DNA of 64,000 nt. Source: an uncultured Chloroflexia bacterium. Its GTDB lineage: Bacteria; Chloroflexota; Chloroflexia; QHBQ01; JADMIH01. The DNA is taken from the NCBI GenBank assembly GCA_963797095.1, contig CAWCNY010000002.1:1248001-1312000 (forward strand), given 5' to 3'. The notes below the pieces were generated by a model. The model was not told where the DNA came from. It saw only the letters and a list, made by a program, of their open reading frames with translations, and did no database searches. The stretch's first letter is position 1, and each line of letters opens with the position of its first letter. Below, one piece after another: positions 21,416 through 35,690 of this stretch. The position numbers and the translations under genes were made by a program.

Positions 21416-23902
21416 TTATTCGAGGCCCTTCAGGGAGGCCAGGGGCCACAGGTGGTATTCGATCTCGGCTAACCCAGCTCTTACTACCGCGTCTACTACT
21501 TCCTGGGCCGGTTTGTAGCACTCGTCGGACTCGTCGAGGGGGACGTCGGCTGCGGCGTTGACTATTATGCCCGCTTTGGCGTAGCGCTTGTTGACTTCTT
21601 TCTGGGAAAGTTCGCGCTTGGCGGCTGAGCGGGACATGCGGCGTCCAGCGCCGTGGTTTACCGAGAAGCCGCTTCGGACCGCGCCGGGCAGCGGGCGGAG
21701 GACGAAGCTGTAGTCGTGGTTGCTGCCTGGGATGAGGATGGGGTGGCCGGTGTCTTCCCAGACAGTGCCTTCGAGAGCCGGGTAGCCTGCGGGGAAGGCG
21801 CGAGTGGCACCTTTGCGGTGTACCCACACCTCTCCATAGTCGGGATGCCACTCTTTTTGCACGAGGTTGTGGCTGATCTCGTAGATTAGCTCAAGGTCGG
21901 CCTTGAAGACCTCGCGGAACGCCTCGGCGATCTGCTGGAACAGGATCAGCCGGTTGATGATCGCGAAGTTGCCCCCGGCGGCTACGGCGTTCAGGTAACT
22001 GCGGTAGTGTTTGGAGTCGGGAGTGAAGTAGCCCATGTCGAGGTGCTTGATGCGGTCGGGCTCTTCCTCCTGTGCCATGTGGAAGTAGTTGGTGGCGAGG
22101 CCATGACCGAAGCCCCGGCTCCCGCTGTGCACCTGCACGAAGAGGGTCTGAGTTTCTTCGCTGCGCTGTAGCTCTATGAAGTGATTTCCTCCACCGAGAG
22201 AGCCAAGTTGTGGTATTCCACGCTCCGGCCGGCCTCTGCCTCCCCACGGTATCTGCCATTCTTCGTCTACGGGGATGCGGTTGCGTTCGGCGCGGCTGCG
22301 GTCGAAGGGTGCGCCGTAGCGCGAGATGTAGTAGTCGGCTCCGCCCTTGATGATCTTAACGAACTCATCCTCGGAGAGGGAACGGAGGGTGGTCTTGCTC
22401 TTGCCCCCCGCGCCCATCTCCACGCGTTGCATGACCGCGCGATTGAAGGCTAGGCGGCGTTCGGGGGTGGCGGCGTCGGCGGGCACATTGGACCTGGCGG
22501 AAACCATCCCGCAGTTGTGGACGAACACACCTGCTTCGAGCGCGAAGTTGCCATAGCCTGGGACCGTCAGGCAGTAGACATCCTCTCGATGAACTAACAT
22601 CTCGACCGCCACTACTTTGTGGTTATAGCCATGTTTGTAGCGACGGTGGCTGTGGATGCCAAAGCCTCCTCCCGGTATGACCTCGCCACAGGTTTCGCAG
22701 GTGTGGGACTTGTGAGCAACCTCTGAGGACTTCCTGCGTCCGGTTTCCGATTGGTTATAAGCAATCAGATAAGCCTTGTCGCGTTCCCCATTACCTGCTA
22801 CCGATGCCTTGAAGTGCTCAGGATTCCTCGCCATATACGTGAGTATATTGCGGGTACCTCTCTCGGCCATGTAAGCATAGCCCTCTTCAGTTTGAGCTTT
22901 TGCAGCGAGTGCGGCTTTCCTTGCTGTCTCGAATGCTTCGGACTGGAAGTGCGAATTGCGCTCGCGGAGGCTCTTATGGTAGGCCGTATGGTCGCGGTTC
23001 CCCATAAATGCAAGATTGGTAGGGCGATTATCTGTGGGTGTGAAGTTGCGGTGGTGTATGACGGTCTTCTGTCCATCAAACGAAGGTATTTCGCCCGGTA
23101 ACCCACCTCGGGCCATTATCGAATGCACCCGCTGATCGTTTTCATTGCCTGGGTGGCGCACAACTGTGTAACCGTCACGATCGGTATGTGAGCGGAATGG
23201 CATCAGAGATGTTCCAGGCTGAAGTTCGTGGGCCTGGCGATAGGCACCATCTCGTAGCATGAATTGATGGTTGGGGGTGCAGGTGATTTCGCGGCCATTG
23301 TCGAGGGTGACCTTCACAAGAGAAGCATCCGTGCGGGTTCTTTGGGCGGTGGCGTGGGCCACCACAATTTTGTGGTTGCTATCAAGCGCGTATACATGCA
23401 AGCTCTCTTCTCTATTCACAAGCTCCGCGATTGGATACGACTTACCATCTGCCGTGGGAACAAGTGTATCGCCCGTGAAACAGCCGATGTCATAGCCGAC
23501 CGGACCCATTGCCAGCGTGCCATCGGTGAGGATGACGGAGCCTACCGGCACACCGTAGCCGAAGTGTGCGTCGGGTGTGATTACCACTAGCTTGACGCCT
23601 GGAAAGCGTGTGGCGTTGACGATCTGAGTGTAAAGCACGTCCTCGGCTTCGTCGAGGAGTTTCTGGGTGAAGAAGAGGCGTACAGGCACATCGCCTGTGT
23701 CCTCGGTCTGAAGGTCGAAGTAGCCTTCGGGGTTCTGTCGGACAAGCCACTTCCAGTCGTGGGTGTGGATGATCTTGTCGGGCCGCTTGCCCTCGGATGT
23801 AGCCTGGGCTACCATCTCCTCTTGCGCCTTGGCGTCTATTTTCGCCTGCGTAATGGGAGACGGGATCATGTGCGGCTTGAGCTTTGTTTTCTTTTTAGCC
23901 AT
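21416..23902 (-). CDS. rtcB: RNA ligase RtcB, intein-containing
   Basis: PDAHFGYGVPVG, GYDIG|CG, GSLGGGNHFIE, HSGSRGFG, SHN, HRKGATRA, HGAGR; AAAGGA RBS before MAKKK. Confidence 0.95.
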   Translation of the reverse strand: MAKKKTKLKPHMIPSPITQAKIDAKAQEEMVAQATSEGKRPDKIIHTHDWKWLVRQNPEGYFDLQTEDTGDVPVRLFFTQKLLDEAEDVLYTQIVNATRFPGVKLVVITPDAHFGYGVPVGSVILTDGTLAMGPVGYDIGCFTGDTLVPTADGKSYPIAELVNREESLHVYALDSNHKIVVAHATAQRTRTDASLVKVTLDNGREITCTPNHQFMLRDGAYRQAHELQPGTSLMPFRSHTDRDGYTVVRHPGNENDQRVHSIMARGGLPGEIPSFDGQKTVIHHRNFTPTDNRPTNLAFMGNRDHTAYHKSLRERNSHFQSEAFETARKAALAAKAQTEEGYAYMAERGTRNILTYMARNPEHFKASVAGNGERDKAYLIAYNQSETGRRKSSEVAHKSHTCETCGEVIPGGGFGIHSHRRYKHGYNHKVVAVEMLVHREDVYCLTVPGYGNFALEAGVFVHNCGMVSARSNVPADAATPERRLAFNRAVMQRVEMGAGGKSKTTLRSLSEDEFVKIIKGGADYYISRYGAPFDRSRAERNRIPVDEEWQIPWGGRGRPERGIPQLGSLGGGNHFIELQRSEETQTLFVQVHSGSRGFGHGLATNYFHMAQEEEPDRIKHLDMGYFTPDSKHYRSYLNAVAAGGNFAIINRLILFQQIAEAFREVFKADLELIYEISHNLVQKEWHPDYGEVWVHRKGATRAFPAGYPALEGTVWEDTGHPILIPGSNHDYSFVLRPLPGAVRSGFSVNHGAGRRMSRSAAKRELSQKEVNKRYAKAGIIVNAAADVPLDESDECYKPAQEVVDAVVRAGLAEIEYHLWPLASLKGLE
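22514..23482 (-). mobile_element. Intein (323 aa) with HNH-type homing endonuclease
   Basis: Starts CFTGDT, block B TCTPNHQF, ends VFVHN|C; internal IHHRNFTPTDNRPTNL HNH motif and CETC..H..H Zn finger. Confidence 0.92.
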
Positions 23903-23998
23903 CTGGGTCCTTTCGTTGCGATCTTCTCTTTGCAAGGGTTGGTTGAATTGTACAATTGAAACTGCCTGATTGGATAGACAAGTGGACGGCGTGATTCG

Positions 23999-24512: not shown

Positions 24513-24596
24513 CGGAAGCGGCAGGACTCGAACCTGCAAAGCCCGAAGGCTCTAGCTGTTTAGCAAACAGGCTCCTGATCCAGCCGGATCACTTCC
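24513..24596 (-). tRNA. tRNA-Ser(GCT)
   Basis: Cloverleaf, loop UUGCUAA, long variable arm, T-loop UUCGAGU. Confidence 0.88.
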
Positions 24597-24685
24597 ATTT
24601 CAGATTTCAGATTTCGGATTTCTGCTGGTTCTACATTCCGCGTCTAAAATCCGAAATCTGAAATCTAAAATCCAAAATCGATCTG

Positions 24686-24758
24686 TGCCTCCGGCAGGAC
24701 TCGAACCTGCAACCCACGGTTTAAAAGACCGCTGCTCTGGCCGTTGAGCTACGGGGGC
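24686..24758 (-). tRNA. tRNA-Lys(TTT)
   Basis: Cloverleaf, loop CUUUUAA. Confidence 0.92.
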
Positions 24759-24825
24759 GTGATATATAAGTGGTTGTGGTATCATGGTGTAGTGTGGCGT
24801 GGCACCCCACCGGAAAGGTGATACC

Positions 24826-25347
24826 ATGCGAACAGTGATAATGGCGTTTTGCACGCTATTTGTGTTGTGCCTTGCGGGGTGCGGGTCCGATGAGGGTGTG
24901 CCCTCTACGCAGGTAGAAGTTCTGCATATACAGGCCATGTTGCCAGGTACGGATTGGCACAAGGCGAGCACCGAGAAGAAGGGCGAATTTGAGACGGAGC
25001 GCTGGGAAAACGGCGATGGTACGCTCTTTTTCAGGGTGGCGGATGCTCCTGACGATGCACTGAGCTATCCGCTTATCCAGGCTAGCTCCGTTGCTCAGTA
25101 TATGGCGGTGATGGATTTCCCACCTTCAACCCTGGTGGAAGATTCAACGATGCTTGGGCGTAGCGCCCTGCGTATGGAGGGGGTTTCGCCTGAGAGCGAC
25201 GCTTATCACACGGTCGATTTCGTGTTTATCGCCGGCCTTCGCCATTTCTTCGTGGGTGCAGGCGCAGCCAATTCGGTTTGGGATGCGGGTGGGTCGGATA
25301 CCGTGTACGCCATAATCCAGAGTGCGAAGCTGGCTATAGTCAAGTAG
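24826..25347 (+). CDS. Hypothetical lipoprotein inserted antisense in the tRNA cluster
   Basis: Lipobox LAGC; AAAGGTG RBS. Confidence 0.7.
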   Translation: MRTVIMAFCTLFVLCLAGCGSDEGVPSTQVEVLHIQAMLPGTDWHKASTEKKGEFETERWENGDGTLFFRVADAPDDALSYPLIQASSVAQYMAVMDFPPSTLVEDSTMLGRSALRMEGVSPESDAYHTVDFVFIAGLRHFFVGAGAANSVWDAGGSDTVYAIIQSAKLAIVK

Positions 25348-25417
25348 GAAATTGAACCAAGACGGTTGGAGTATAGGCCACGACAGCGTGCCTGGAGTTC
25401 ACGCCATCGCGGCCCGG

Positions 25418-25490
25418 TCGGCGCGCCCGGAGTTGAACGGGGACCGTCTGTTTATAAGACAGATGTGCAGTACCGCTACACCACACGCCG
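25418..25490 (-). tRNA. tRNA-Ile(TAT), atypical
   Basis: Cloverleaf, loop CUUAUAA, C1-G72, imperfect T stem. Confidence 0.75.
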
Positions 25491-25567
25491 GGGAGTTTGG
25501 AGCTCGAAGTTTGAGGTTTGAAGTTCCGACTACCGATTACCAGCAACTTCAAACATAGAATCTGGCT

Positions 25568-25653
25568 TGGAGGAAGCGGGGAGGCTCGAACTCCCAAGAC
25601 CCGAAGGTCCAGCCGTTTTCGGGACGGTTTGCTCACCAATTCGCATCGCTCCC
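25568..25653 (-). tRNA. tRNA-Ser(CGA), C33
   Basis: Loop CCCGAAA, long variable arm, encoded CCA. Confidence 0.8.
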
Positions 25654-25737
25654 TTGGGGACGGACGAAAGACGAAAGACGAATATAAGGAGTTTGTTTGA
25701 TCGTTCGTCTTTCGTCCTTCCGTCATTTGTCGTACAG

Positions 25738-26307
25738 CTAACCCGGCAGGTAGGGCTGCCACTCTGCTACCAGTTCACCGCTGGCGGTGAAGCGGCGCAG
25801 GATTGCGTAAGGGTTGGGGCGCGGTTCACGTGGGACGGAGCGCAGACGCATCTTTGCCTGGTCGGGGGTGCGCTGCCCCTTCTTGTGATTGCAGTTGGAG
25901 CATGCCGACACGAGGTTGTCCCAGGTGTGGCGGCCACCCTTCGAGCGCGGAAGGATGTGGTCCAGGGTGAGGTCGCGGGTGTGCTTGCCGCAGTATTGGC
26001 AAGTGTAGTTGTCGCGCAGGAAGATCTCATGCCGGGTCAGGGATACTCGGCGTTGCGGGTGGCGCACCATGTACTGTAGCCGGATTACCGACGGGCATTC
26101 CACAATAGTGGATGGTGCGCGTACCATGCCTTCGCTGAACTCCAGCACCTCTGCCTTGCCGGTGAGAGTGAGAGTCAGTGCGCGCCGGGTGGAGCAGACG
26201 TTGAGAGGCTCGAAGTTCTGGTTCAGCACCAGCACAGGCGCGGCCAACAGGTCGATTGCGGATTTTAGATTGCTGACTGCGGATTGATTCTGTAGTTCGT
26301 CTATCAT
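25738..26307 (-). CDS. HNH endonuclease (McrA-like, HNH_5)
   Basis: VLVLNQNFEPL, RDNYTCQYCG, TLDHILPRSKGG..WDNLVSACSNCNHKKG. Confidence 0.93.
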   Translation of the reverse strand: MIDELQNQSAVSNLKSAIDLLAAPVLVLNQNFEPLNVCSTRRALTLTLTGKAEVLEFSEGMVRAPSTIVECPSVIRLQYMVRHPQRRVSLTRHEIFLRDNYTCQYCGKHTRDLTLDHILPRSKGGRHTWDNLVSACSNCNHKKGQRTPDQAKMRLRSVPREPRPNPYAILRRFTASGELVAEWQPYLPG

Positions 26308-26445
26308 GAATTTGTATTCGGTATGTTGGCCGCGCCTGAGAGGGCGTGTCCAGGGCCTTTATGTCTCCTTTCTTGGGATTTTGGAATTGGAGTCAGGCTA
26401 ATGACTTGGACTTTCGTCGTTCGTCTTTGGTCCTTCGTCCGGTTG

Positions 26446-26521
26446 TGGTGTACCTGGGATGGCTCGAACATCCTACCTGCGCTGTATCAGAACGCTGCTC
26501 TACCGGGTGAGCTACAGGTAC
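26446..26521 (-). tRNA. tRNA-Ile(GAT)
   Basis: Cloverleaf, loop CUGAUAC, encoded CCA. Confidence 0.88.
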
Positions 26522-27500: not shown

Positions 27501-28825
27501 GTTGGTGTATTATCTTTTCTGTAAATTGGGAAATGTGGACCGGCTGAGATAGACAGCAGGTCAGGGTGTATCCTTTGAGTTGCGAAACACCAAAAGGAGG
27601 GCACCCATGACCTACCAGCCAGATTATACGTTATCGCAGGAACTGTTGGAACGTCTCAACGAAGAAGGATTAGACGCTTTACCAGAGATGATTCGAATCG
27701 TCATTAACTCAGCTATGCAAGCTGAGCGGCTCAAATAGTTGGGTGTTGGTGCTCCTTACGAGCGCTCTGCGGAGCGGCAGGACCAGTCCAACGGTTACAA
27801 GCCAAAGACGCTCAAGACCAGAGTGGGTGAGATTACCTTCTCTGTGCCCCAGGTGCGACAGGGCGACTTCTACCCTGGAGCCCTGGAGAAGGGACTGCGC
27901 TCGGAGCGTGCTCTCACACTGGCGTTGGCAGAGATGTACGTGCAAGGGGTCTCGACGCGCAGAGTGGCAGCCATCACCGAGAAGCTATGCGGTACCCAGG
28001 TATCCAGTGCTGCAGTGAGCCGAGCTGCCTCCCAGTTGGACGAGGTGCTGGAAGGGTGGCGCAACCGACCGCTGGGGGAGTGTCCCTACCTTATCCTGGA
28101 TGCCCGTTATGAGAAGGTGAGGCAGGACGGGCAGGTGAGAGACGCTGCAGTGCTGATTGGTATTGGCATCACCCGTGCAGGGCGACGGCAACTGCTGGGA
28201 GTATCGGTATCTTTGAGCGAGTATGAGGTGCATTGGCGCACCTTCCTGCAGAGCCTGGTATCGAGGGGGCTATCAGGAGTGAGGATGATAACATCCGACG
28301 CTCATGAGGGGCTGGGGGCAGCACGCAAGGCGGTATTCGGAGGAGTGCCCTGGCAGCGGTGCCAGTTTCATCTGCAGCAGAATGCCCAGGCTTATGTTCC
28401 CCGGCAGGAGATGAAAGCTGAGGTAGCCCAGGACATTAGAGCCATCTTCTCGGCATCATCATTGGAGCAGGCCAAACAGATGCTGGACAAAGCGGTTGCG
28501 AAGTATGAGAAGAGCGCTGCTCGCCTATCGCACTGGCTGCAAAACAACATCTTGGAAGGGTTGACCGTCTTTGCCCTCCCACAATCACAGTGGCGATCCC
28601 TTCGCACCACCAACGGGCTGGAACGCATCAACCAGGAGGTACGCCGGCGGACCAGAGTGGTGGGGATCTTCCCCAACGAGGCGAGTTGCCTGCGCTTGGT
28701 GACGGCAGTGCTGATGGAGATCAGCGACGAATGGGAGACAGGCCGAGCTTACATGACTTTTGACTACTGATTGACCAATTTAGAGGAACACCCTGACCAA
28801 TTTACAGAAAAAGGCTTGCATAATC
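27501..28825 (+). mobile_element. IS256-family insertion sequence
   Basis: Imperfect TIRs sharing TTTTCTGTAAATTGG; 9-bp direct repeat TTCTGATAG at 27492-27500 and 28826-28834. Confidence 0.93.
27607..28770 (+). pseudogene. IS256 transposase with in-frame TAG at 27736-27738
   Basis: AGGAGG+ATG at 27607 in frame with the 27739 ORF; EMYVQGVSTRRV, SDAHEGL, WQRCQFH, TTNGLER. Confidence 0.88.
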
Positions 28826-28980: not shown

Positions 28981-30642
28981 TTATGCTATTTCACCAGTGA
29001 CAAAGTCCGACATAATTGCTGGTGCATTAGCGTCAAAACCTACTACGTCGAGCATGCCCGCGTCGTCTGGGTCCGAGATGGAAAAGCCGTTGGAGGTCAT
29101 ACCTACGACGATCATCTTGGCCGGGATACCCATCTTGTCGCGGTACTGGCGCAGGGCCTCTGCCGGGTGCGGCTTGCCTGCCCAGGTCTCCGAGTCGGTG
29201 TAGACAACGAAGACGTCGGCCTGGACCTTGTGATTCATAGCCCACTTCATCGGGAGAGCGCAGTCGGTGCCGCCCATCGGGATGGCCGAGGTGGTCTTCA
29301 CCACGTCGTCCAGCCGCTGGCGCGGGCTGATGTTGACCGGGGTGATACCCGGGTCGCCGCCGCCCCATTGGCCGCCGATTACACCCTTCGATGGAGCCGA
29401 GAAGGCCACGATGGTGTGGTCCTTCTCGACCGCCGCGGTTACGAGCGCCATTGCGGCGCTGCCGGTGCGTGCGTCGAGGCCGGGGATACCCGCGATCATG
29501 CTGCCGCCCATCGAGCCCGACACGTCGAGCGCCAGCAGCCAGCGCTTGTTGGTTGGCTGCACAGCGCCAAAGGCGATGTAGAATGCGTCGTTGAGGGCGT
29601 CGATTACGGGGGTTACGGGAGTCCAGCGCAGCTTGCCGCGCTCGCCCCGGCCCTGTGCGTAGGTCTTGATGGCTGCCAGCACCTTGATTGGGTGCAGACG
29701 TGCCTTGATGATACGGTCCTTCTTGCCCAGTTCGGCGACAACCTTGCGGGTCGCGTCGCTCATGGGCGCAATGAGGCCAACATCGGTCATCTTAGCCAGG
29801 TTGCGGATCATGGCCTCCATCGGCATGTTTGCCAGCAGGATTTCCCAGATGTCGCGGCTGTTGAGCCACTGGGTCGGGATTGCCTCGCGAGGCAGGTTGT
29901 AATCGAGGATGAGGCCCAGCACTTCGTTTTCGGTCTGAGCGCGCTTTGCTCGCTCGAACGCCCACAGGAGGCGAAGGTTCTCGTCCGGGTGTGGCTCGTC
30001 GCCTACCCACTCCCAGCCGTTCACCATCCAACCGTAGATGATCTCGTGTACGTTGTCTACCGGCTTCGGGTGGGCCAGGCGCAGGAGGTCGCGGTGCGAC
30101 CAACCGTCGCGCTGCTGGTACTTGATGGCTTGAAGAGCTAGCTTGTCCGCGGGCTGTGCATACCACTTGGCAACAGCCTCGCGCAGGCCACGACCCCAAC
30201 CGCGCAGACCGTCTACGTACTGTGCAAAGTGGAAGAGGTGGGTGCCGATGCGGCACACTCGCGGCAGGGCATCGAAAGCTGCTCGCTTGGTAGCGGCGTC
30301 GCCGTAGGTCGCTGCTAGAGCGAGGGCGAAGATCGCCGGGTCGTTTTTGGGTGCGCGGCCTGCCTCCGAGATTGCGACGATGCGCTCGACTGCGCGCTGG
30401 CCGTCTTCCTTGATGCAGTGAATAACTGCGTTGGCGTTTTCGGCGGTGAGGGCCTTTTCGGTGATGTAGTAGGTGCCGCCCTCGCTGCCCAGGATCAGCC
30501 ATCTATCGAGACGCATCCAGTCGTCGACCGTCCACGAGTAGCCGCCGCCGCTGTTGGCAACCTGGTCGCTGCCCGGTATCGGCTGGCTCTGCGGGGTGTC
30601 GTTTGCCTGGATGCTCTTTACAAAGTTGGTGATGTTCTTCAT
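28981..30642 (-). CDS. rsr: TROVE-domain Ro60-related RNA-binding protein (Rsr) with vWA domain
   Basis: NSGGGY, RWLILGSEGGTYY, GWGRGLR, KYQQRDGWSHRDLLRLAHPKP, DVSGSM MIDAS, GGTDCALPM, YTDSETW; AAGGAG RBS. Confidence 0.96.
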   Translation of the reverse strand: MKNITNFVKSIQANDTPQSQPIPGSDQVANSGGGYSWTVDDWMRLDRWLILGSEGGTYYITEKALTAENANAVIHCIKEDGQRAVERIVAISEAGRAPKNDPAIFALALAATYGDAATKRAAFDALPRVCRIGTHLFHFAQYVDGLRGWGRGLREAVAKWYAQPADKLALQAIKYQQRDGWSHRDLLRLAHPKPVDNVHEIIYGWMVNGWEWVGDEPHPDENLRLLWAFERAKRAQTENEVLGLILDYNLPREAIPTQWLNSRDIWEILLANMPMEAMIRNLAKMTDVGLIAPMSDATRKVVAELGKKDRIIKARLHPIKVLAAIKTYAQGRGERGKLRWTPVTPVIDALNDAFYIAFGAVQPTNKRWLLALDVSGSMGGSMIAGIPGLDARTGSAAMALVTAAVEKDHTIVAFSAPSKGVIGGQWGGGDPGITPVNISPRQRLDDVVKTTSAIPMGGTDCALPMKWAMNHKVQADVFVVYTDSETWAGKPHPAEALRQYRDKMGIPAKMIVVGMTSNGFSISDPDDAGMLDVVGFDANAPAIMSDFVTGEIA

Positions 30643-30653
30643 TCTTTCTCCTT

Positions 30654-30673
30654 TCGGCCCCTTTGGGGCAAGA
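30654..30673 (-). promoter_or_regulatory. Ro-binding-motif hairpin abutting the rsr RBS
   Basis: mRNA reads CUUGCCCC-AAA-GGGGCCGA-AAGGAG-AAAGA-AUG; same motif as the permuted array units. Confidence 0.65.
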
Positions 30674-30763
30674 TTTGTATTTGATAGCCGGTAGCCGGAA
30701 GTTCCAGGTTCCAGGTTCCAAGTTTCTGGTTGTGACTGCTGGCTACAGTGATAGCGTAGAGAT

Positions 30764-30814
30764 TCCTCCGCCGATAGAATATGGCTCTGAGCGCGGTATT
30801 CTATCGGCGGAGGA
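30764..30814. repeat. 19-bp stem-loop between the Y-RNA array and rsr
   Basis: TCCTCCGCCGATAGAATAT...GTATTCTATCGGCGGAGGA. Confidence 0.7.
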
Positions 30815-30823
30815 CCGCGAAAC

Positions 30824-31068
30824 GAGGCGGTCAAGAGACGCATTGGGAGACAATCTGGACGTTGGCTTGCGGCCTGTTCCAGCTATGTACCTCCGGCAAC
30901 CCCGGCTGGCGGGCAGTTACCTTCGGATTGTCTTGCTTCCCGGCGAATAAACCCCCGATGCGGGAGAACCCGGCCTGTTATTGGCCTCGTGGTCTGGTAG
31001 CAGTTCGCCTCTTGCTGATCCGGTTTGGGTTGGTCATGATAGGTAACCCAATAGCAGCGTACCGCCTC
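30824..31068 (-). ncRNA. Y RNA-like unit 1 (canonical, large ~190-nt insert)
   Basis: GAGGCGGUACG...UUGGGUUACC ... CCCAAUG...CUUGACCGCCUC. Confidence 0.72.
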
Positions 31069-31096
31069 AATTCCATGATACCACTACGATTGTTTC

Positions 31097-31206
31097 CCCG
31101 GTAGTCAAGGGGCGTAATGGCCGAGATTCGCCCAGGCATGAAGGGGCCTGAGCTTAGGATTTGAACCTGTGCAGGCCGATAACCCATGTACAACGTACCA
31201 CCAGGG
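31097..31206 (-). ncRNA. Y RNA-like unit 2 (YrlA-type: T arm + loop-closed acceptor-like stem)
   Basis: GGUGGUACG/UUGACUACC, GGGUUAUC, AGG-UUCAAAU-CCU, GCUCAGGC/GCCUGGGC. Confidence 0.8.
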
Positions 31207-31324
31207 TGGGGGTGGGAGGGATCGAACCTCCGTTTTCGGGTCCCGTTAATCATCACCTGACGGCCCTGAAGGCAAGGTAACGATGATGAGTTTGCCCGCT
31301 GTGCTGCCACTACACTACATCCCC
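31207..31324 (-). ncRNA. Unit 3: tRNA body with Ro helix in the anticodon loop (permuted Y RNA)
   Basis: Acceptor, D and T arms present; insert UCAUCAU..CUUGCC-UUCA-GGGCCG..GUGAUGA-UUAAC. Confidence 0.75.
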
Positions 31325-31397
31325 GATTTGGGTATTGATGGTAATTACGACTTACGAATTATGTGTCATTCCGACTACCGACTACCGACAGTACCGA

Positions 31398-31489
31398 GTG
31401 CAGGCGAATGTTGTTCAAGGGTTGTCTGATCAGGCAAAGCCCGGTCAGCCCTGTGGTGGACTGATAACCCTGTGAGCCGCGGCCCGCAC
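31398..31489 (-). ncRNA. Y RNA-like unit 4 (canonical)
   Basis: GUGCGGGCCG...AGGGUUAUC ... CCCUUG...UUCGCCUGCAC. Confidence 0.68.
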
Positions 31490-31510
31490 GCTGTTCTGTT
31501 CGTTTCTTTT

Positions 31511-31661
31511 CAGGCAGTCAAGGATGGCGTTTTGGGGTTTCTGGGGTGTGGGACTTGCACCTACTCTGTGGGTCTTTCACCCACTTTCAGCCCGCGAGTG
31601 CTGTTTTGCCATTTTCGCCATTTTCAAGATGGAAGATAACCCAAAACTGCGTACCGCCCTG
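31511..31661 (-). ncRNA. Y RNA-like unit 5 (canonical, with anticodon-like and T-like hairpins)
   Basis: GGCGGUACG/UUGACUGCC, GUUUUGGG/CCCAAAAC, UUAUC, CCAU-CUUGAAA-AUGG, GUAGG-UGCAAGU-CCCAC. Confidence 0.78.
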
Positions 31662-31681
31662 TATATTCGAGAAGAAGTGTG

Positions 31682-31766
31682 CCGGTGGGCAAGGGACGTG
31701 TTGGGAATGACTTTCGTCAAGCAGATTCACAGTCTGAGGGGTAACCCATACACTGCGTACCACCGG
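31682..31766 (-). ncRNA. Y RNA-like unit 6 (canonical)
   Basis: CCGGUGGUACG...UGGGUUACC ... CCCAACAC..CUUGCCCACCGG. Confidence 0.75.
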
Positions 31767-31781
31767 GCAACCATGTTTTGT

Positions 31782-31898
31782 TGGGGAGCAGCGGGAGTCG
31801 AACCCACGCAACCTCCCGAAGGAGGGTATCTATCCTCTGATAACCGTCAGCGGACGGCCCTTGAGGGCAAGGGATGTTGACGGGGTTTTACACTCCCC
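31782..31898 (-). ncRNA. Unit 7: permuted Y RNA with acceptor stem and T arm, no D arm
   Basis: GGGGAGUG/UGCUCCCC ends, CUUGCCC-UCAA-GGGCCG, CUGACGG-UUAUC, GUGGG-UUCGACU-CCCGC. Confidence 0.72.
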
Positions 31899-31911
31899 AT
31901 GAGTGTGGTTC

Positions 31912-31984
31912 TGGCGGTCAAGGAACGCTCCCGGTGTGGGAGTTGAACCCATGTGCACCGGTAACCGGAAGCACCGTACCACCA
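31912..31984 (-). ncRNA. Y RNA-like unit 8 (minimal, ~73 nt, with T loop)
   Basis: UGGUGGUACG/UUGACCGCCA, CCGGUUACC, UGGG-UUCAACU-CCCA. Confidence 0.78.
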
Positions 31985-31987
31985 TTG

Positions 31988-32111
31988 TGGAGACGGAGGG
32001 ACTCGAACCCTCGACCCGGCCGTTAGTAGCGGTAACCATCAGCCACCGGCCCCCGTGGGGCAAATACCGGTAATGGCTTTAAACCTGCTCTGCCATCTGA
32101 GCTACGTCCCC
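31988..32111 (-). ncRNA. Unit 9: complete tRNA (anticodon ACU) with Ro helix inserted in the 5' strand of the anticodon stem
   Basis: GG[insert UUUGCCCC-AC-GGGGGCCG..GAUGGUUA]CCG-CUACUAA-CGGCC; normal D, T and acceptor arms. Confidence 0.78.
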
Positions 32112-32185
32112 TGGGTTTGGACGAAAGACGAAGGACGTAGGACGATGGTTGTCGTCCAGGGTCTTGTCTAGCGTCCGGTTGTCAG

Positions 32186-32279
32186 GAAGGAAATAGTCAA
32201 TATTTGCTTTCAGGAATTGCCCGGCAGTGCCGGACCATTGCATTAATGGGTAACCTGAATGCGCCGTCCCAGATCCTTC
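32186..32279 (-). ncRNA. Y RNA-like unit 10 (canonical, degenerate)
   Basis: GAAGGA..UGGGACG..UUCAGGUUACC ... CCUGAA..UUGACUA..UCCUUC. Confidence 0.62.
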
Positions 32280-32289
32280 ACCGATGTTC

Positions 32290-32423
32290 GATGGTGGCCC
32301 TCTATCGCGCCGAGCGCCGTAGGCACGTCCGGGCCTACGGACGGGAATTGAACCCGCGTGTTACCTGCGTACTCAACTACGACCTGCCGCCATGAGATAG
32401 CCGGTGCCGACCGGCCGACCATC
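32290..32423 (-). ncRNA. Y RNA-like unit 11 (YrlA-type tRNA mimic, degenerate Ro site)
   Basis: GAUGGU/ACCAUC ends, GGCCG..GGCUAUC, GCGGG-UUCAAUU-CCCGU then CCGUAGGC/GCCUACGG closed stem. Confidence 0.6.
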
Positions 32424-32434
32424 TTCTGATAATT

Positions 32435-32534
32435 GGAGGAAAGCAAGCAGTCAAAGCACGCGTTGGGCCTGCGGACGCGTTACCCGCAGTTATGGTTGCG
32501 AATGATACCCCATTGGCAACGTACCGCTTTCTCC
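32435..32534 (-). ncRNA. Y RNA-like unit 12 (canonical)
   Basis: AAGCGGUACG...UGGGGUAUC ... CCCAAC..UUUGACUGCUU. Confidence 0.72.
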
Positions 32535-32543
32535 TGTATGTAT

Positions 32544-32678
32544 TGGGGATGGCAGGATTCGAACCTGCAAGAGCTTGTGCTCACTCGTTTTCAAGACGAT
32601 AACCCTCAGCCTTCGGCCCCCATGGGGCAAGGTATGGTGACGGTGTATTAGCGCGTTTGCCATTTCCGCCACATCCCC
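32544..32678 (-). ncRNA. Unit 13: class II tRNA (anticodon UGA, Leu-like body) with Ro helix inserted in the 5' strand of the anticodon stem
   Basis: CU[insert CUUGCCCC-AU-GGGGGCCG..GAGGGUUAU]CGU-CUUGAAA-ACGAG; long variable arm, T arm. Confidence 0.78.
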
Positions 32679-32691
32679 ACGATTATTGTGT

Positions 32692-32809
32692 TGGAGCGCC
32701 CGATAAGAATCGAACTTACGGTAACCATCAATCCGGCGGCCCTGGAGGTTCTTGAGGTCCTGGAGGGCAAAGATTGGAGACGGGTGCTCTCCAATCGAGC
32801 GTCGGGCGC
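32692..32809 (-). ncRNA. Unit 14: permuted Y RNA, anticodon arm replaced by Ro helix, ends in encoded CCA
   Basis: GCGCCCG/CGGGCGC-U-CCA, D arm GCUC/GAGC, UUUGCCC...GGGCCG, GAUGGUUACC, T loop UUCGAUU. Confidence 0.8.
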
Positions 32810-32810
32810 A

Positions 32811-32887
32811 TGGTGCTTGGGGTGGGGGTTGAACCCACGACCTCCTGCTTTTCAGACAAGCGCTGCTACCAACTGAGCTACCCAAGC
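32811..32887 (-). tRNA. tRNA-Phe(GAA)
   Basis: Loop CUGAAAA, CCA. Confidence 0.88.
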
Positions 32888-32992
32888 GGGCAAACATGAA
32901 ACGTGAGGACGAAGGATTAGATTACGAGTGACGAATGACGAATGACGAGTGATTACGCAATACGCAGTACGCAATAGGTCCTGTCTCACGAT

Positions 32993-33067
32993 TGGTCTGG
33001 ATGGAGAGGATCGAACTCCCGATCTCTAGCGCCCAAGGCTAGCGTGTTCCCGCTACACTACACCCAG
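32993..33067 (-). tRNA. tRNA-Pro(TGG)
   Basis: Loop CUUGGGC, C1-G72, CCA. Confidence 0.9.
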
Positions 33068-33107
33068 ATATGGTTATATCTCGTCCATCGTTCTTCACCG
33101 TTCGTTG

Positions 33108-33183
33108 TGGCGGCCCGTAGGGGAGTTGAACCCCTCCTTTCGACATTGACAGTGTCGCGTCTCGTCCACTCGACCAACGGGCC
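33108..33183 (-). tRNA. tRNA-Asp(GTC)
   Basis: Loop CUGUCAA, G73, CCA. Confidence 0.9.
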
Positions 33184-33256
33184 AGTTCGATTTTGGATTT
33201 TAGATTGGGGATTTTGGATTGAAGTCGTAGCAATTCCGAAATCTGAAATCCGAAAT

Positions 33257-33332
33257 TGGTACAGGGGGGCAGATTCGAACTGCCGGCCACTCGCGTCCGA
33301 GGCGAGTACGCTTACCACTGCGCTACCCCTGT
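33257..33332 (-). tRNA. tRNA-Pro(CGG), atypical A1-U72/A37
   Basis: Loop CUCGGAC, CCA. Confidence 0.82.
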
Positions 33333-33351
33333 ATGCATGATTTATTTCTTG

Positions 33352-33422
33352 TTCCGGGGCAAGGATTCGAACCTCGCTCTGCCGGTTCAAAGCCGGCGAT
33401 CTTACCGCTGGACGACCCCGGA
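33352..33422 (-). tRNA. tRNA-Gln(TTG)
   Basis: Loop CUUUGAA, U1-A72. Confidence 0.87.
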
Positions 33423-33485
33423 AGGATGATGATGACGGGGACGATGCAAGAACGTAAGCGTTGCCGACTATCGGCTACTTCCTTT

Positions 33486-33563
33486 TGGTGAGCGTTGGAG
33501 GACTTGAACCTCCGGCCTCCAGGTTCGCGGCCTGGTGCTCTGATTCCACTGAGCTAAACGCTC
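33486..33563 (-). tRNA. tRNA-Arg(GCG), C33
   Basis: Loop CCGCGAA, CCA. Confidence 0.82.
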
Positions 33564-33597
33564 GTGTTGTCTGTGCTCTTGTCCATGGCCCACCGGG

Positions 33598-33668
33598 CAG
33601 TGAGGGAGGGAGTCGAACCCCCATGGACCGATTAACAGTCGGTTATCTTACCTTTAGATGACCTCACT
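33598..33668 (-). tRNA. tRNA-Asn(GTT)
   Basis: Loop CUGUUAA, G73. Confidence 0.85.
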
Positions 33669-33686
33669 ATTGTCTTGTTATGCGGG

Positions 33687-33772
33687 CGGGTCGGGTGGGA
33701 TTTGAACCCACTTGCGTCCAAGACGCACTTGTTTTACAGACAGGCCCGGCTACCCGTATCCGGCTCCGACCC
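33687..33772 (-). tRNA. tRNA-Tyr(GTA)
   Basis: Loop CUGUAAA, long variable arm; G73. Confidence 0.85.
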
Positions 33773-33858
33773 AAGTTGTTGCGGTTGAAAGATGATTATT
33801 GGCGAGTGACGAGTGACGAATGACGAGTTCTGGAAATCGGCAATCTAAAGTCCGCGAT

Positions 33859-33934
33859 TGGTGGACAGCCAGGGATTTGAACCCCGAACATTCTCGGTGT
33901 AGGCGAGACGCTCCATCCGTTGAGCTAGCCGTCC
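33859..33934 (-). tRNA. tRNA-Val(TAC), C33
   Basis: Loop CCUACAC, CCA. Confidence 0.85.
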
Positions 33935-33947
33935 ATTGGAAGGGCGC

Positions 33948-34023
33948 TGGTAGGGTGTGCGGGGATCGAACCCGCGATCTACTCTTTGAAAGAGAGTTAT
34001 CCTGACCACTAGACGAACACCCC
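33948..34023 (-). tRNA. tRNA-Glu(TTC)
   Basis: Loop CUUUCAA, CCA. Confidence 0.9.
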
Positions 34024-34034
34024 ACAGGGTTGAT

Positions 34035-34112
34035 TGGTAGCGCATGAGAGATTCGAACTCCCGGTCTCCAGGCTGAGAACCTGGCGTCCTGGGCCAGCTA
34101 GACGAATGCGCC
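34035..34112 (-). tRNA. tRNA-Glu(CTC)
   Basis: Loop UUCUCAG, CCA. Confidence 0.9.
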
Positions 34113-34192
34113 GTGTTGTTACGGACGAAGGATGGCGGTTTGCCACCTGCTGTTCTTTCGTCGTCCGTCTTTAGTATTTTGTCCGCAGAAAG

Positions 34193-34264
34193 AGGTGCCG
34201 AGGGGAATTGAACCCCTGGTTAGCCGGGTTGCAGCCGGCCGCCTTACCACTTGGCTACGGCACC
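34193..34264 (-). tRNA. tRNA-Cys(GCA)
   Basis: Loop CUGCAAC, U73. Confidence 0.9.
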
Positions 34265-34271
34265 GCTTGGG

Positions 34272-34347
34272 TGGTGGAGCAGGGGAGATTCGAACTCCCA
34301 TCTTCCTCGTTGCAGGCGAGACACTCTGCCATTTGAGCTACTGTCCC
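34272..34347 (-). tRNA. tRNA-Ala(TGC), C33
   Basis: Loop CCUGCAA, G3-U70, CCA. Confidence 0.86.
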
Positions 34348-34418
34348 GTTTTGGTAGTCGGTAGTCGGTAGGCGGTAGTCAGATGGTATTTTACTGATAA
34401 CTGGCTGCCGAGCTTTTG

Positions 34419-34492
34419 TTTCGCGGAGCGGATTCGAACCGCTGGTCCCCTGGGTCACAGTCAGGTGCTTTTGCCGCTAAGCTACCGCGAAC
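34419..34492 (-). tRNA. tRNA-His(GTG)
   Basis: Loop CUGUGAC, G-1 present, A73. Confidence 0.82.
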
Positions 34493-34573
34493 ATGTGGTT
34501 AGACGATAGACGATGGACGAAAGTAAAGGTGAGCTTTCGTCGTCCGTTGTTCGTTTTTAGTCTGATGCACCGG

Positions 34574-34644
34574 TTCCGTGTCAAGGATTCGAACCTCGTT
34601 CTGCTGGTTCAGAGCCAACTGTCCTACCGTTGGACGAACACGGA
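34574..34644 (-). tRNA. tRNA-Gln(CTG)
   Basis: Loop CUCUGAA, U1-A72. Confidence 0.87.
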
Positions 34645-34747
34645 ATATGATGGATCCTTGGATACTGCGTAGTGCTTATTTCGTATTGCATGTCGGTGCG
34701 AGATTATTCCGCACTCTATACTCCGCATTCCGCATTTGAGTGTGGGG

Positions 34748-34821
34748 CGCACCCAGAGAGATTCGAACTCCCGGCCCGCTGGTTCGAAGCCAGCTGCTCT
34801 GTTCCACTGAGCTATGGGTGC
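34748..34821 (-). tRNA. tRNA-Arg(TCG)
   Basis: Loop CUUCGAA. Confidence 0.88.
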
Positions 34822-34872
34822 AGGATAGTGCGTATTGCGTACTGCTTATCGCTTACTTCGCATATACAGATT

Positions 34873-34948
34873 TGGTTGCGGAGGAGGGACTTGAACCCTC
34901 GATCTGGTCATTATGAGCGACCCGCTCTTGCCGCTGAGCTACTCCGCA
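34873..34948 (-). tRNA. tRNA-Met/Ile2(CAT)
   Basis: Loop CUCAUAA, CCA. Confidence 0.88.
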
Positions 34949-35013
34949 ATGGTGGGTGAGAGACGCAGGATGAAGGATGAAGGATGAAGGATGAAGGATT
35001 AAGGATGATAGCG

Positions 35014-35090
35014 TGGTACCGGAGGAGAGATTCGAACTCCCAACGTCTGCGGTCTGAGCGCAGTGTGTCTACCAGTTGCACCACTCCGGC
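35014..35090 (-). tRNA. tRNA-Leu(CAG) with short variable loop
   Basis: Loop CUCAGAC, 5-nt variable region, CCA. Confidence 0.85.
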
Positions 35091-35189
35091 ATATCTTAGT
35101 GACAAATGACGAGTGACGAGTGACAAGTGACTGGATAAGCAGTAAGCACTAAGCAATAGGTCACGTATCACGTATCACGTTTCACGGGT

Positions 35190-35264
35190 TGGAGCGGTAG
35201 TAGGGATTCGAACCCTCATCTCCTCCATGGCGCGGAGGTGCTCTGCCGGTTGAGCGACTACCAC
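35190..35264 (-). tRNA. tRNA-Gly(GCC), G32/C33
   Basis: Loop GCGCCAU, U73, CCA. Confidence 0.82.
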
Positions 35265-35305
35265 ATTTTTGCGGATTGGCGTTTTGGGGGTTTCTTCCGC
35301 AAGGG

Positions 35306-35377
35306 CACAAGCGGTAGGATTTGAACCCACATCCCACAGTTTTGGAGACTGGTGCTCTCCCATTGAGCTACGCTTGT
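35306..35377 (-). tRNA. tRNA-Trp(CCA)
   Basis: Loop CUCCAAA, G73. Confidence 0.87.
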
Positions 35378-35381
35378 ATGC

Positions 35382-35472
35382 AGCGAGCAGACCAGGCATG
35401 CCTTCACGCTTGGGCTTTACGATATGTGCGGCCCGCGCTGGACTCCAGGCACACCTGGCGTGTCTGCTCACT
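35382..35472 (-). ncRNA. Unidentified rod-shaped structured RNA within the tRNA array
   Basis: Nested helices GAGCAGA/UCUGCUC, CCAGGUGUGCCU/AGGCAUGCCUGG, GGGC/GCCC. Confidence 0.45.
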
Positions 35473-35614
35473 CTTTTTATTCGCGATCCATCTTCTACTG
35501 TTAAGGTGCACGGTCTGCCGTGGACTGCCGGCGCTTTCTTTGTTTTATTGTCCTATTCGGGTTATTTACTTCTATGTCGCCCGTCACGGCTTTCCGTCTG
35601 CATCGACAGATGCA

Positions 35615-35690
35615 TGGTGCCCCCGGCAGGGTTCGAACCTGCGCCTCACCGATTAAGAGTCGGTTACTCTTCCTGCTGAGTTACAGAGGC
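35615..35690 (-). tRNA. tRNA-Lys(CTT)
   Basis: Loop CUCUUAA, CCA. Confidence 0.92.

Follow-up and report, generated by a model that had tools for sequence, protein, structure and literature searches.

The 64,000-nucleotide (nt) stretch of DNA analysed here, from a contig of an uncultured Chloroflexota bacterium (CAWCNY010000002.1, positions 1,248,001 to 1,312,000; below, the window), carries two elements close to rsr, the gene of a Ro60 orthologue. These elements, unit 9 (31988..32111, minus strand, 124 nt) and unit 13 (32544..32678, minus strand, 135 nt), have the outline of transfer RNAs (tRNAs) into whose anticodon stem a 51-nt helix of the Ro60/Rsr-binding type is inserted. They are probably unspliced, non-decoding Y RNAs with the topology of a tRNA, which would present a whole tRNA mimic on Rsr and might act as a bait for anticodon nucleases. 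Together with their homologues they look, on sequence comparison, like a conserved and apparently undescribed tRNA-topology form of bacterial Y RNA. In the proposed architecture, the RNA would start and end in a normal 7-base-pair (bp) acceptor stem, the D and T arms would keep the bases of the tertiary contacts, and an anticodon-like stem-loop could be kept because the putative Rsr-binding helix is a closed hairpin that branches from the 5' strand of the anticodon stem. The tRNA mimicry of bacterial Y RNAs has been known only as circularly permuted, anticodon-less domains. The family described here would unite a Ro60-binding helix with an otherwise complete, normally ordered tRNA including the anticodon loop, and would be a tangible link in the line that has been proposed to lead from tRNAs to Y RNAs.

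tRNA frames around a Ro-type helix

Read from its 5' end, unit 9 runs GGGGACG-UA-GCUC-AGAUGGCA-GAGC-A-GG, is interrupted by the 51-nt insert (32033..32083, minus strand) and continues CCG-CUACUAA-CGGCC-GGGUC-GAGGG-UUCGAGU-CCCUC-CGUCUCC-A. Its parts are a 7-bp acceptor stem (G1:C72, G2:C71, G3.U70, followed by A73), a D arm, a split anticodon stem with the 7-nt loop CUACUAA, a 5-nt variable loop and a T arm; CCA is not encoded. The anticodon hairpin CCG-CUACUAA-CGGCC occupies 32018..32032 on the minus strand with the triplet ACU at 32027-32025, and its final CC pairs across the insert with G27 and G28 (32085-32084); these pairings appear as helices 3 and 6 in the pair count given below. Unit 13 has a type-II body with a long variable arm and is composed of GGGGAUG-UG-GCG..CGC-G-CU, a 51-nt insert (32599..32649, minus strand), the anticodon hairpin CGU-CUUGAAA-ACGAG (32584..32598, minus strand; triplet UGA at 32593-32591), the long variable arm, a T arm and CAUCCCC-A, which ends in A73 with no CCA encoded.

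With the insert in place, unit 9 passed the Rfam tRNA model (RF00005, cut-off 29 bits) at 41.8 bits, and unit 13 scored 25.4 bits, below the cut-off, through another partial alignment. Default ARAGORN called neither unit in this form. When introns were allowed, it called both units, forcing the insert into the loop, and also 31205-31324; a weaker call at 32696-32801 appeared at a lowered threshold. After in silico excision of exactly 51 nt, default ARAGORN reported unit 9 as tRNA-Ser(act) of 73 nt and unit 13 as tRNA-Ser(tga) of 84 nt, in agreement with the original prediction that removal of the insert restores a 5-bp anticodon stem and a 7-nt loop in both units, and that both anticodons, ACU and UGA, read Ser codons. 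Its placement of the insert at about position 28/29 was also borne out: the 5' strand of the stem is interrupted at 28/29 in unit 9 and at either 28/29 or 27/28 in unit 13, where the point is ambiguous because a U stands on both sides of the insert.

From the tRNA junction, the inserts consist of an A-rich linker, an upper stem (CCAUYACC/GG[C]UGAUGG), an internal loop and a lower stem with a bulged C that is closed by a loop of 3-4 nt. In unit 9, the A-rich linker is followed by the upper stem CCAUUACC/GG[C]UGAUGG, the lower stem UUUGCCCC/GGGGC[C]GG with its bulged C and the loop ACG, and the linker UUA leads back to the tRNA; the two stems are helices 4 and 5 in the pair count given below. 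The helix of unit 13 reads CCUUGCCCC-AUG-GGGGCCGAAGG and carries the published GNCGAAG motif as GCCGAAG (motif as given in the accessible text of PMC4201824). The helix and its bulged C are conserved among the homologues, and the inserts of units 9 and 13 have, as judged by eye, diverged from each other. The 3' linker UUA together with the first bases of the anticodon stem forms a GGUUAYC motif that is common to the canonical units of the neighbouring Y-RNA array, whose ends lie in the Ro stem. As GGTTAYC, this motif has 19 matches in the window, 11 of which fall within 31042..32726 on the minus strand. Read from its sequence, the insert is a Y-RNA helix of the Ro60/Rsr-binding type turned inside out, with a small loop replacing the usual RNA ends. 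The Ro-type stem is closed by 3-4 nt, and the complementary ends of the RNA, as predicted, instead form the acceptor stem.

Conservation of the family and its link to rsr

A BLAST search with the region identified copies of unit 9 with 70-89% identity in relatives, often several per locus, and ARAGORN with introns allowed reported 40 such elements in 16 sources. An alignment of 23 of these 40 elements (A1) was used to name the structure, to count its pairs and to build a covariance model. In A1, 91.4% of the cells paired, compared with 35-57% when the partners were slid, and changes on both sides were found at 14 pairs. None of 500 shuffles reached the observed value on four of five measures, and 112 of the 500 reached it for the remaining one, 'further standard pair types'. 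The two pairs that bridge the insert were 95% paired, and both had changed on both sides (GC and AU; CG, UA and GC). The nearest orthologue of unit 9 (L017_7723, 89% identical) exhibits a compensatory change from G28:C42 to C28:G42. The architecture is therefore more than a product of chance, since homologues keep it and both pairs of the split helix have changed on both sides. A larger alignment (A2) of 49 distinct elements, which was fitted to the model and so leans towards it, was 92.2% paired.

The covariance model scored unit 9 at 127 bits and unit 13 at 72.6 bits. In the source genome (6.0 Mb, 8 contigs, 93% complete), it found five insert-bearing matches, all at this locus, and ordinary tRNAs reached at most 64 bits. 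At E ≤ 1e-13, matches were present in 18 of the order's 40 genomes and in 19 of 151 genomes of the class, one of them outside the order, and none was obtained in 150 other genomes of the phylum. Among metagenomes, 20 matches at E ≤ 1e-10 occurred in 12 of 80 loci, with quite different acceptor sequences. Three stretches of viral contigs that matched the pattern GGGCCGNNGGNNGATGGTTA did not fit the covariance model and were taken as chance.

The elements are linked to rsr. Of the order's 40 genomes, 19 have a TROVE domain; of the 18 genomes bearing elements, 16 do, and the other two are only 71-73% complete. By tblastn, rsr lies beside the elements in the retrieved loci, 8 of the 12 from metagenomes among them, and the identity of Rsr goes down to about 50%; the elements almost always stand just upstream of the gene. 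A search of genome contigs for related loci, with Rsr as query, returned one locus only.

These results bear on the idea that the units are decaying, functionless tRNA genes into which a small mobile hairpin with a chance resemblance to a Ro helix has jumped. The same insert does occur in different bodies (Thr-like, type-II and, in metagenomes, several other acceptor sequences), and the locus contains both a Mutator-family transposase gene and an HNH gene. All helices nevertheless remain paired with compensatory changes, 16 of the 18 genomes with elements also have rsr, and in the source genome the elements are found only beside it. Moreover, the insert of unit 9 and that of unit 13 have diverged from each other and so are not recent copies. 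Such an origin is accordingly highly improbable.

Several observations weigh against units 9 and 13 being structured Y RNAs with a tRNA frame. The insert of unit 9 reads GCCGGUG and not GNCGAAG, the AA of the published motif not being kept. The minimum-free-energy folds recovered the acceptor, D and T arms but missed the split pairs, and their z-scores were modest; the inner part of unit 9 was paired differently (z -1.17), and in unit 13 the CUUGAAA hairpin was present (z -2.37). The RNAalifold consensus of the 23 sequences contained neither the split helix nor the local hairpin and instead paired ACC with GGU over 3 bp, without compensatory change. The shuffle controls overstate the significance because the homologues are related. 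The unpublished genomes G021, G022 and G032 supply 3 of the 23 rows of A1 as well as rows of A2, and are included in the BLAST, order, class and TROVE counts. In addition, the two units lack an encoded CCA, their RNA ends and processing are predicted from sequence, and the anticodon hairpin is dispensable in some members of the family (see below), which weakens a role centred on the anticodon loop. Despite the disagreement of the folding programs, the named structure was retained because of the compensatory changes.

The anticodon loop and the possible functions of the elements

To describe the anticodon region, 34 of 69 distinct elements were picked by length alone, with 20-21 nt between GGUUA and the T stem, a distance that exactly accommodates 3-4 bases of the stem, the loop of 7 nt, a strand of 5 nt and a variable loop of 5 nt. 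The length-only parse mis-anchored at least two elements with the triplet AGG (L014:4368 and L016:951), both outside the 34. Among the 34, the local stem was fully paired in 30, and a pyrimidine at position 32, U33, a purine at 37 and A38 were found in 31, 32, 31 and 30 elements, respectively. The triplets were nearly random, with A34 in 4 elements. Positions 34, 35 and 36 had entropies of 1.91, 1.85 and 1.63 bits (n = 24), compared with 0.50 bits at 33 and 0.25 bits at 38. The loop frame Y32-U33-NNN-R37-A38 is thus conserved and the triplet is free. Of the earlier expectation that the anticodon loops would be conserved in homologues, the frame has stood and the triplet has not, with 21 different triplets in the 34 elements.

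An earlier set of 26 elements, the filter for which required U33, gave further details. U36 was accompanied by A37 in 12 of 12 cases and G36 by G37 in 5 of 6, as in real tRNAs; A36 was accompanied by G37 in 3 of 4, unlike in real tRNAs. The triplets differed in all eight genomes that had at least two such elements, and the ACU of unit 9 is AUU in its nearest orthologue and GUU in a further one. The original prediction had also asked whether orthologous loci conserve the insertion site, and this was partly the case: it is kept within the anticodon stem, at 28/29 in 21 of the 26 elements, and has moved to 27/28 in four and to 29/30 in one, with inserts of 44-51 nt. In other relatives, the same helix directly replaces the anticodon arm (6 nt from GGUUA to the T stem) or caps the anticodon stem. 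The hairpin is therefore dispensable for at least some members. The 7-bp acceptor stem was fully paired in 62 of the 69 elements, and N73-CCA was encoded in 27 of them.

In both units, the anticodon does not fit the body. Without its insert, unit 9 is nearest to the tRNA-Thr genes of the genome (81% and 80%), so that ACU, with A34, stands on a Thr-like type-I body. Unit 13 without its insert is nearest to tRNA-Leu(UAA) (74%) and then to tRNA-Ser(UGA) (68%), and UGA stands on a Leu-like body with A73; the Leu-like D arm and A73 had been noted in the original prediction. The Ser tRNAs of the genome carry G73. The 17-nt anticodon arm of unit 13 (32584-32600) is identical at 16 of 17 positions to that of the housekeeping tRNA-Ser(CGA) (G000:C2:376918), and the match extends to the beginning of the variable arm. 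Unit 13 can therefore be regarded as a mosaic, with an anticodon arm resembling tRNA-Ser(CGA) and a D arm and acceptor resembling tRNA-Leu.

This mismatch is relevant to the proposal that the units are latent or split tRNA genes, from which an endonuclease would excise the 51 nt and RtcB would join the halves into a working tRNA-Ser under stress. RtcB is the ligase of the archaeal-type tRNA splicing pathway, and an rtcB gene (21416..23935, minus strand) lies 8 kb downstream of the units on the same strand. Exact excision yields a cloverleaf that ARAGORN accepts, unit 13 has both a Ser anticodon and a long variable arm, its anticodon arm is 16/17 identical to tRNA-Ser(CGA), and the tRNA array of the window has no reader of Ser UCN codons. 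The tRNA introns of archaea and algae, as well as permuted and split tRNAs, need a bulge-helix-bulge motif and a splicing endonuclease. As in those introns, an insertion interrupts a tRNA gene here, but neither component was found, and the insert is a conserved helix of a protein-binding type. The splicing-endonuclease domain PF01974 had no match in the 93%-complete genome, with four archaeal controls positive; no bulge-helix-bulge was seen by eye at the junctions, which meet in a single three-way junction; and at E ≤ 5 there was no match to any intron or ribozyme family. In addition, the junction drifts between 27/28 and 29/30 among relatives, some of which have the insert but no anticodon hairpin to restore, and the triplet shifts from ACU to AUU and GUU between close orthologues. 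The Thr-like type-I body of unit 9, with its A34, should not be charged by seryl-tRNA synthetase, and A73 on a Leu-like body separates unit 13 from the G73-bearing Ser tRNAs of a genome whose housekeeping set already includes tRNA-Ser(UGA). Finally, the insert keeps its protein-binding-type helix under purifying selection, which would be unneeded in an intron. The evidence against splicing leaves room for an unknown nuclease; the latent-tRNA proposal is unlikely. Among the three functions originally suggested, cleavage and RtcB ligation has turned out to be the least supported, given the missing endonuclease match and bulge-helix-bulge motif and the mismatch of body and anticodon. The other two, an evolutionary intermediate between tRNA and Y RNA and an anticodon bait tethered on Rsr, are compatible with the results.

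The completeness of the acceptor, elbow and anticodon loop could also suggest decoding tRNAs that retain their extra arm while functioning on the ribosome or together with EF-Tu, possibly in the role of alanine-charged rescue RNAs comparable to transfer-messenger RNA (tmRNA). The combination of G1:C72, G2:C71, G3.U70 and A73 directs alanylation. It is present in unit 9 and in 17 of 65 parsed elements, and G3.U70 is otherwise confined to the three tRNA-Ala of this genome (the selenocysteine (SeC) row of that survey is a numbering artefact). CCA is encoded in the 27 of 69 elements mentioned above. Against decoding, a helix of about 50 nt on the anticodon stem should, by reasoning alone, clash with the small subunit, the alanine set is absent from 48 of the 65 elements, and the A34 triplets and the mismatched bodies and anticodons do not suit it. 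The tRNA mimic tmRNA has an open acceptor stem and the alanine identity pair G3.U70, and acts in a ribonucleoprotein (RNP) outside normal decoding, in which it resembles the RNAs proposed here. The present elements differ from it in having neither an mRNA-like part nor a link to SmpB, and the alanine set only in the stated fraction. Participation in translation therefore has very little probability.

The preferred explanation, that units 9 and 13 are unspliced tRNA-topology Y RNAs, would involve three steps. First, a long minus-strand transcript of the tRNA array, the Y-RNA array and rsr would be cut at the tRNA-shaped units, by RNase P at the 5' end and by RNase Z or exonucleases, with addition of CCA, at the 3' end. 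Second, Rsr would bind the extra arm. Third, the resulting particle would show its tRNA mimic (elbow, acceptor end and anticodon loop) to tRNA-binding proteins. Because the triplet is free within a conserved frame, proteins that read the anticodon loop would be the most likely clients and partners of the RNP. The unit may then function as a competitor, bait or sentinel for anticodon nucleases, and the neighbouring RtcB could reseal the cut, which is the least certain step of the proposal. A decoy or bait role on Rsr is possible. Hughes et al. (2020) reported that the rsr-yrlBA-rtcBA operon of Salmonella is turned on by tRNA halves that result from cuts in the anticodon loop, and suggested that YrlA may compete with a nuclease (accessible text of PMC7790460); we infer that a Y RNA bearing an anticodon would fit the idea of such competition even better.

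A bolder version is offered as speculation. Rsr might hold a small library of whole-tRNA baits, several tRNA-shaped Y RNAs per genome that share one scaffold and differ in their anticodon loops, to be bound or cut in place of the real tRNAs by anticodon nucleases of phages or competitors. The Rsr-held halves might be resealed by RtcB, or the cut might signal damage; elements with G3.U70 and A73 might be alanylated like tmRNA. The elements would then represent the un-permuted ancestor of YrlA, which could have originated by reading a tandem array between the midpoints of successive hairpins.

Known systems, the Y-RNA array and its neighbourhood

YrlA, which occurs in Salmonella, mycobacteria and many other bacteria and is thought to be derived from tRNA, is a circularly permuted tRNA mimic with its ends in the Ro stem, a closed acceptor loop, no CCA and no anticodon loop (accessible text of PMC4201824 and bioRxiv 10.1101/312249). 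As described there, YrlA and the present elements share adjacency to rsr, frequent proximity to rtcB, and a Ro-binding helix joined to a tRNA-like domain with D and T arms and tertiary contacts. In YrlA, however, the T arm precedes the D arm, whereas the elements here follow the real tRNA order, with an open acceptor, a closed Ro hairpin and a 7-nt anticodon loop. Cutting the loop of the Ro hairpin and closing the acceptor stem would give the order of YrlA, of which the elements are in this sense the un-permuted counterpart. On one metagenome contig (L059:1452-1773), two near-identical tRNA-shaped Y RNAs, both with the triplet UUU, lie in tandem 198 nt apart, the kind of arrangement from which a permuted, YrlA-like unit could arise. 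The Rfam model of YrlA (RF02553, cut-off 69 bits) matched nothing at the locus at E ≤ 1, and its best match in the genome, at 24.6 bits, was elsewhere. Since default tRNA finders and this model miss them, tRNA-shaped Y RNAs have probably been overlooked in annotation.

Yrn1 of Deinococcus radiodurans is similar in that both strands of its Ro helix resemble animal Y RNAs and in that its structure can be represented with a T arm and also an 'anticodon arm' whose stem has 5 bp (accessible text of PMC4201824). It differs, according to the same text, in ending in the Ro stem and in having a 6-nt loop and no full cloverleaf. The Rfam Yrn1 model (cut-off 80) reached only 22.7 bits here, in a partial match that covers the anticodon, variable and T-arm region in unit 13. 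The Band-7-associated tRNA-like RNA of RtcB loci (b7a-tRNA; Burroughs and Aravind 2016, as discussed in the accessible text of bioRxiv 10.1101/312249) is not credited with a Ro-binding helix in that second-hand description. No Band-7 gene was found in the window, and the three Band_7 genes of the genome are far away, so the locus is not a b7a-tRNA context. In the accessible portions of the bacterial Rsr and Y-RNA literature, no tRNA-ordered Y RNA with an anticodon loop was found, although Burroughs and Aravind (2016), Sim and Wolin (2018) and Sim et al. (2020) may describe one; the searchable supplementary files of PMC4201824 contain no Chloroflexota names.

The acceptor stem of Mycobacterium smegmatis YrlA is opened by RNase P, and the RNA gains CCA (accessible text of PMC4201824). 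As could happen here, tRNA enzymes give a Y RNA its CCA end, but the product described for M. smegmatis consists of two pieces joined by pairing, whereas a single chain with tRNA ends is predicted for the present units. This precedent also supports the view that the tRNA shape is only processing punctuation, which recruits RNase P and RNase Z to free the Y RNAs and their downstream neighbours, with the anticodon hairpin as an ancestral leftover. Four tRNA-shaped units each precede a canonical Y unit, either by about 2-5 nt or by about 15-25 nt, and some relatives lack the hairpin. The anticodon loop, however, is unnecessary for both enzymes, yet U33, R37 and A38 are kept in 30-32 of the 34 elements, and the loop frame persists across Rsr divergence down to about 50% identity. 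At other loci (L052), moreover, the chimeras succeed each other with no canonical unit between them. Processing punctuation as the sole role is thus a possible but doubtful account. A whole tRNA mimic presented on Rsr, the preferred explanation, would make use of the same processing enzymes.

The Y-RNA/rsr locus lies entirely on the minus strand, in the order of 21 tRNA genes, the array of Y-RNA-like modules and rsr. The module array occupies 1.9 kb (~32810-30850), in which canonical units alternate with tRNA-shaped ones. Besides units 9 and 13, three tRNA-shaped units were recognised on this strand. The third (31207..31324) carries the Ro helix within its anticodon arm and lacks a clean 7-nt anticodon hairpin (Rfam tRNA 45.1 bits; own covariance model 54.8 bits). 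The fourth (31780..31897), recognised from its sequence, has acceptor-stem ends, a Ro helix, a T arm and a reduced D arm (own model 31.9 bits). The fifth (32692..32809) has acceptor-like ends, a Ro helix and a T arm (own model 33.9 bits) and corresponds to the ARAGORN call at lowered threshold.

The tRNA-shaped units that start at 32678, 32111, 31897 and 31324 each precede a canonical Y unit opening with GGUGGUACG or GCGGUACG (window 31110-32680, minus strand). The gap is about 2-5 nt after unit 9 and the unit at 31207-31324, and about 15-25 nt after unit 13 and the unit at 31780-31897. With a canonical unit so close behind, a single cut at the tRNA-like 3' end could make or approach the 5' end of the next RNA. 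In a canonical unit at ~31510-31660 (minus strand), with its ends in the Ro stem, UUAUC is immediately followed by a hairpin of 4 bp whose loop is CUUGAAA; this hairpin was located at ~31640-31606, as the original prediction had indicated. This loop is common to that canonical unit, unit 13 and the housekeeping tRNA-Ser(UGA).

Directly downstream of the array, rsr (28981..30843, minus strand) encodes a protein with TROVE and Ro60 vWA domains (Pfam E 2.5e-47 and 7.2e-64). The Rsr proteins of relatives can be aligned only from about residue 55 of the 620-residue open reading frame (window 30680-30843), so the true start is probably further downstream; such a later start would leave space for one more RNA unit. 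The tRNA array directly upstream of the Y-RNA array (32811..35690, minus strand) contains 21 ordinary genes according to ARAGORN and Rfam, and the same programs found four further tRNA genes (24514-26521, minus strand) mixed with an HNH gene. ARAGORN reported 71 tRNAs in the genome, where the 25 of the window are extra copies and a full housekeeping set is present elsewhere. The 25 genes span 19 amino acids, and none of them reads Thr codons. It is the tRNA-Thr of this genome that the scaffold common to the tRNA-shaped Y RNAs resembles most (81% and 80%).

Between rsr and the downstream part with tRNA, HNH and rtcB genes lies the Mutator-family transposase gene (27739-28770, plus strand). The rtcB gene is interrupted by an intein (Pfam RtcB E 4.7e-91; Intein_splicing E 5.1e-22), with Intein_splicing and Hint matches inside the RtcB match. 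The small open reading frames in 24.0-27.5 kb, 35.8-36.4 kb and 31524-31880 gave no HEPN protein with Pfam and NCBIfam; the only hit was the generic HNH domain at 25738-26307. A promoter and terminator scan found sites no more numerous than in shuffles. A stretch of about 30 nt at window 32116-32150, with short GACGAAG/GACGTAG-like repeats, recurs at 88-97% identity across many contigs, both in this genome and in several others of the genus. At 25568-25653 (minus strand), an 86-nt tRNA-like stretch without an ARAGORN call matched the covariance model at 25 bits (E 7e-5) and may be a degenerate type-II tRNA.

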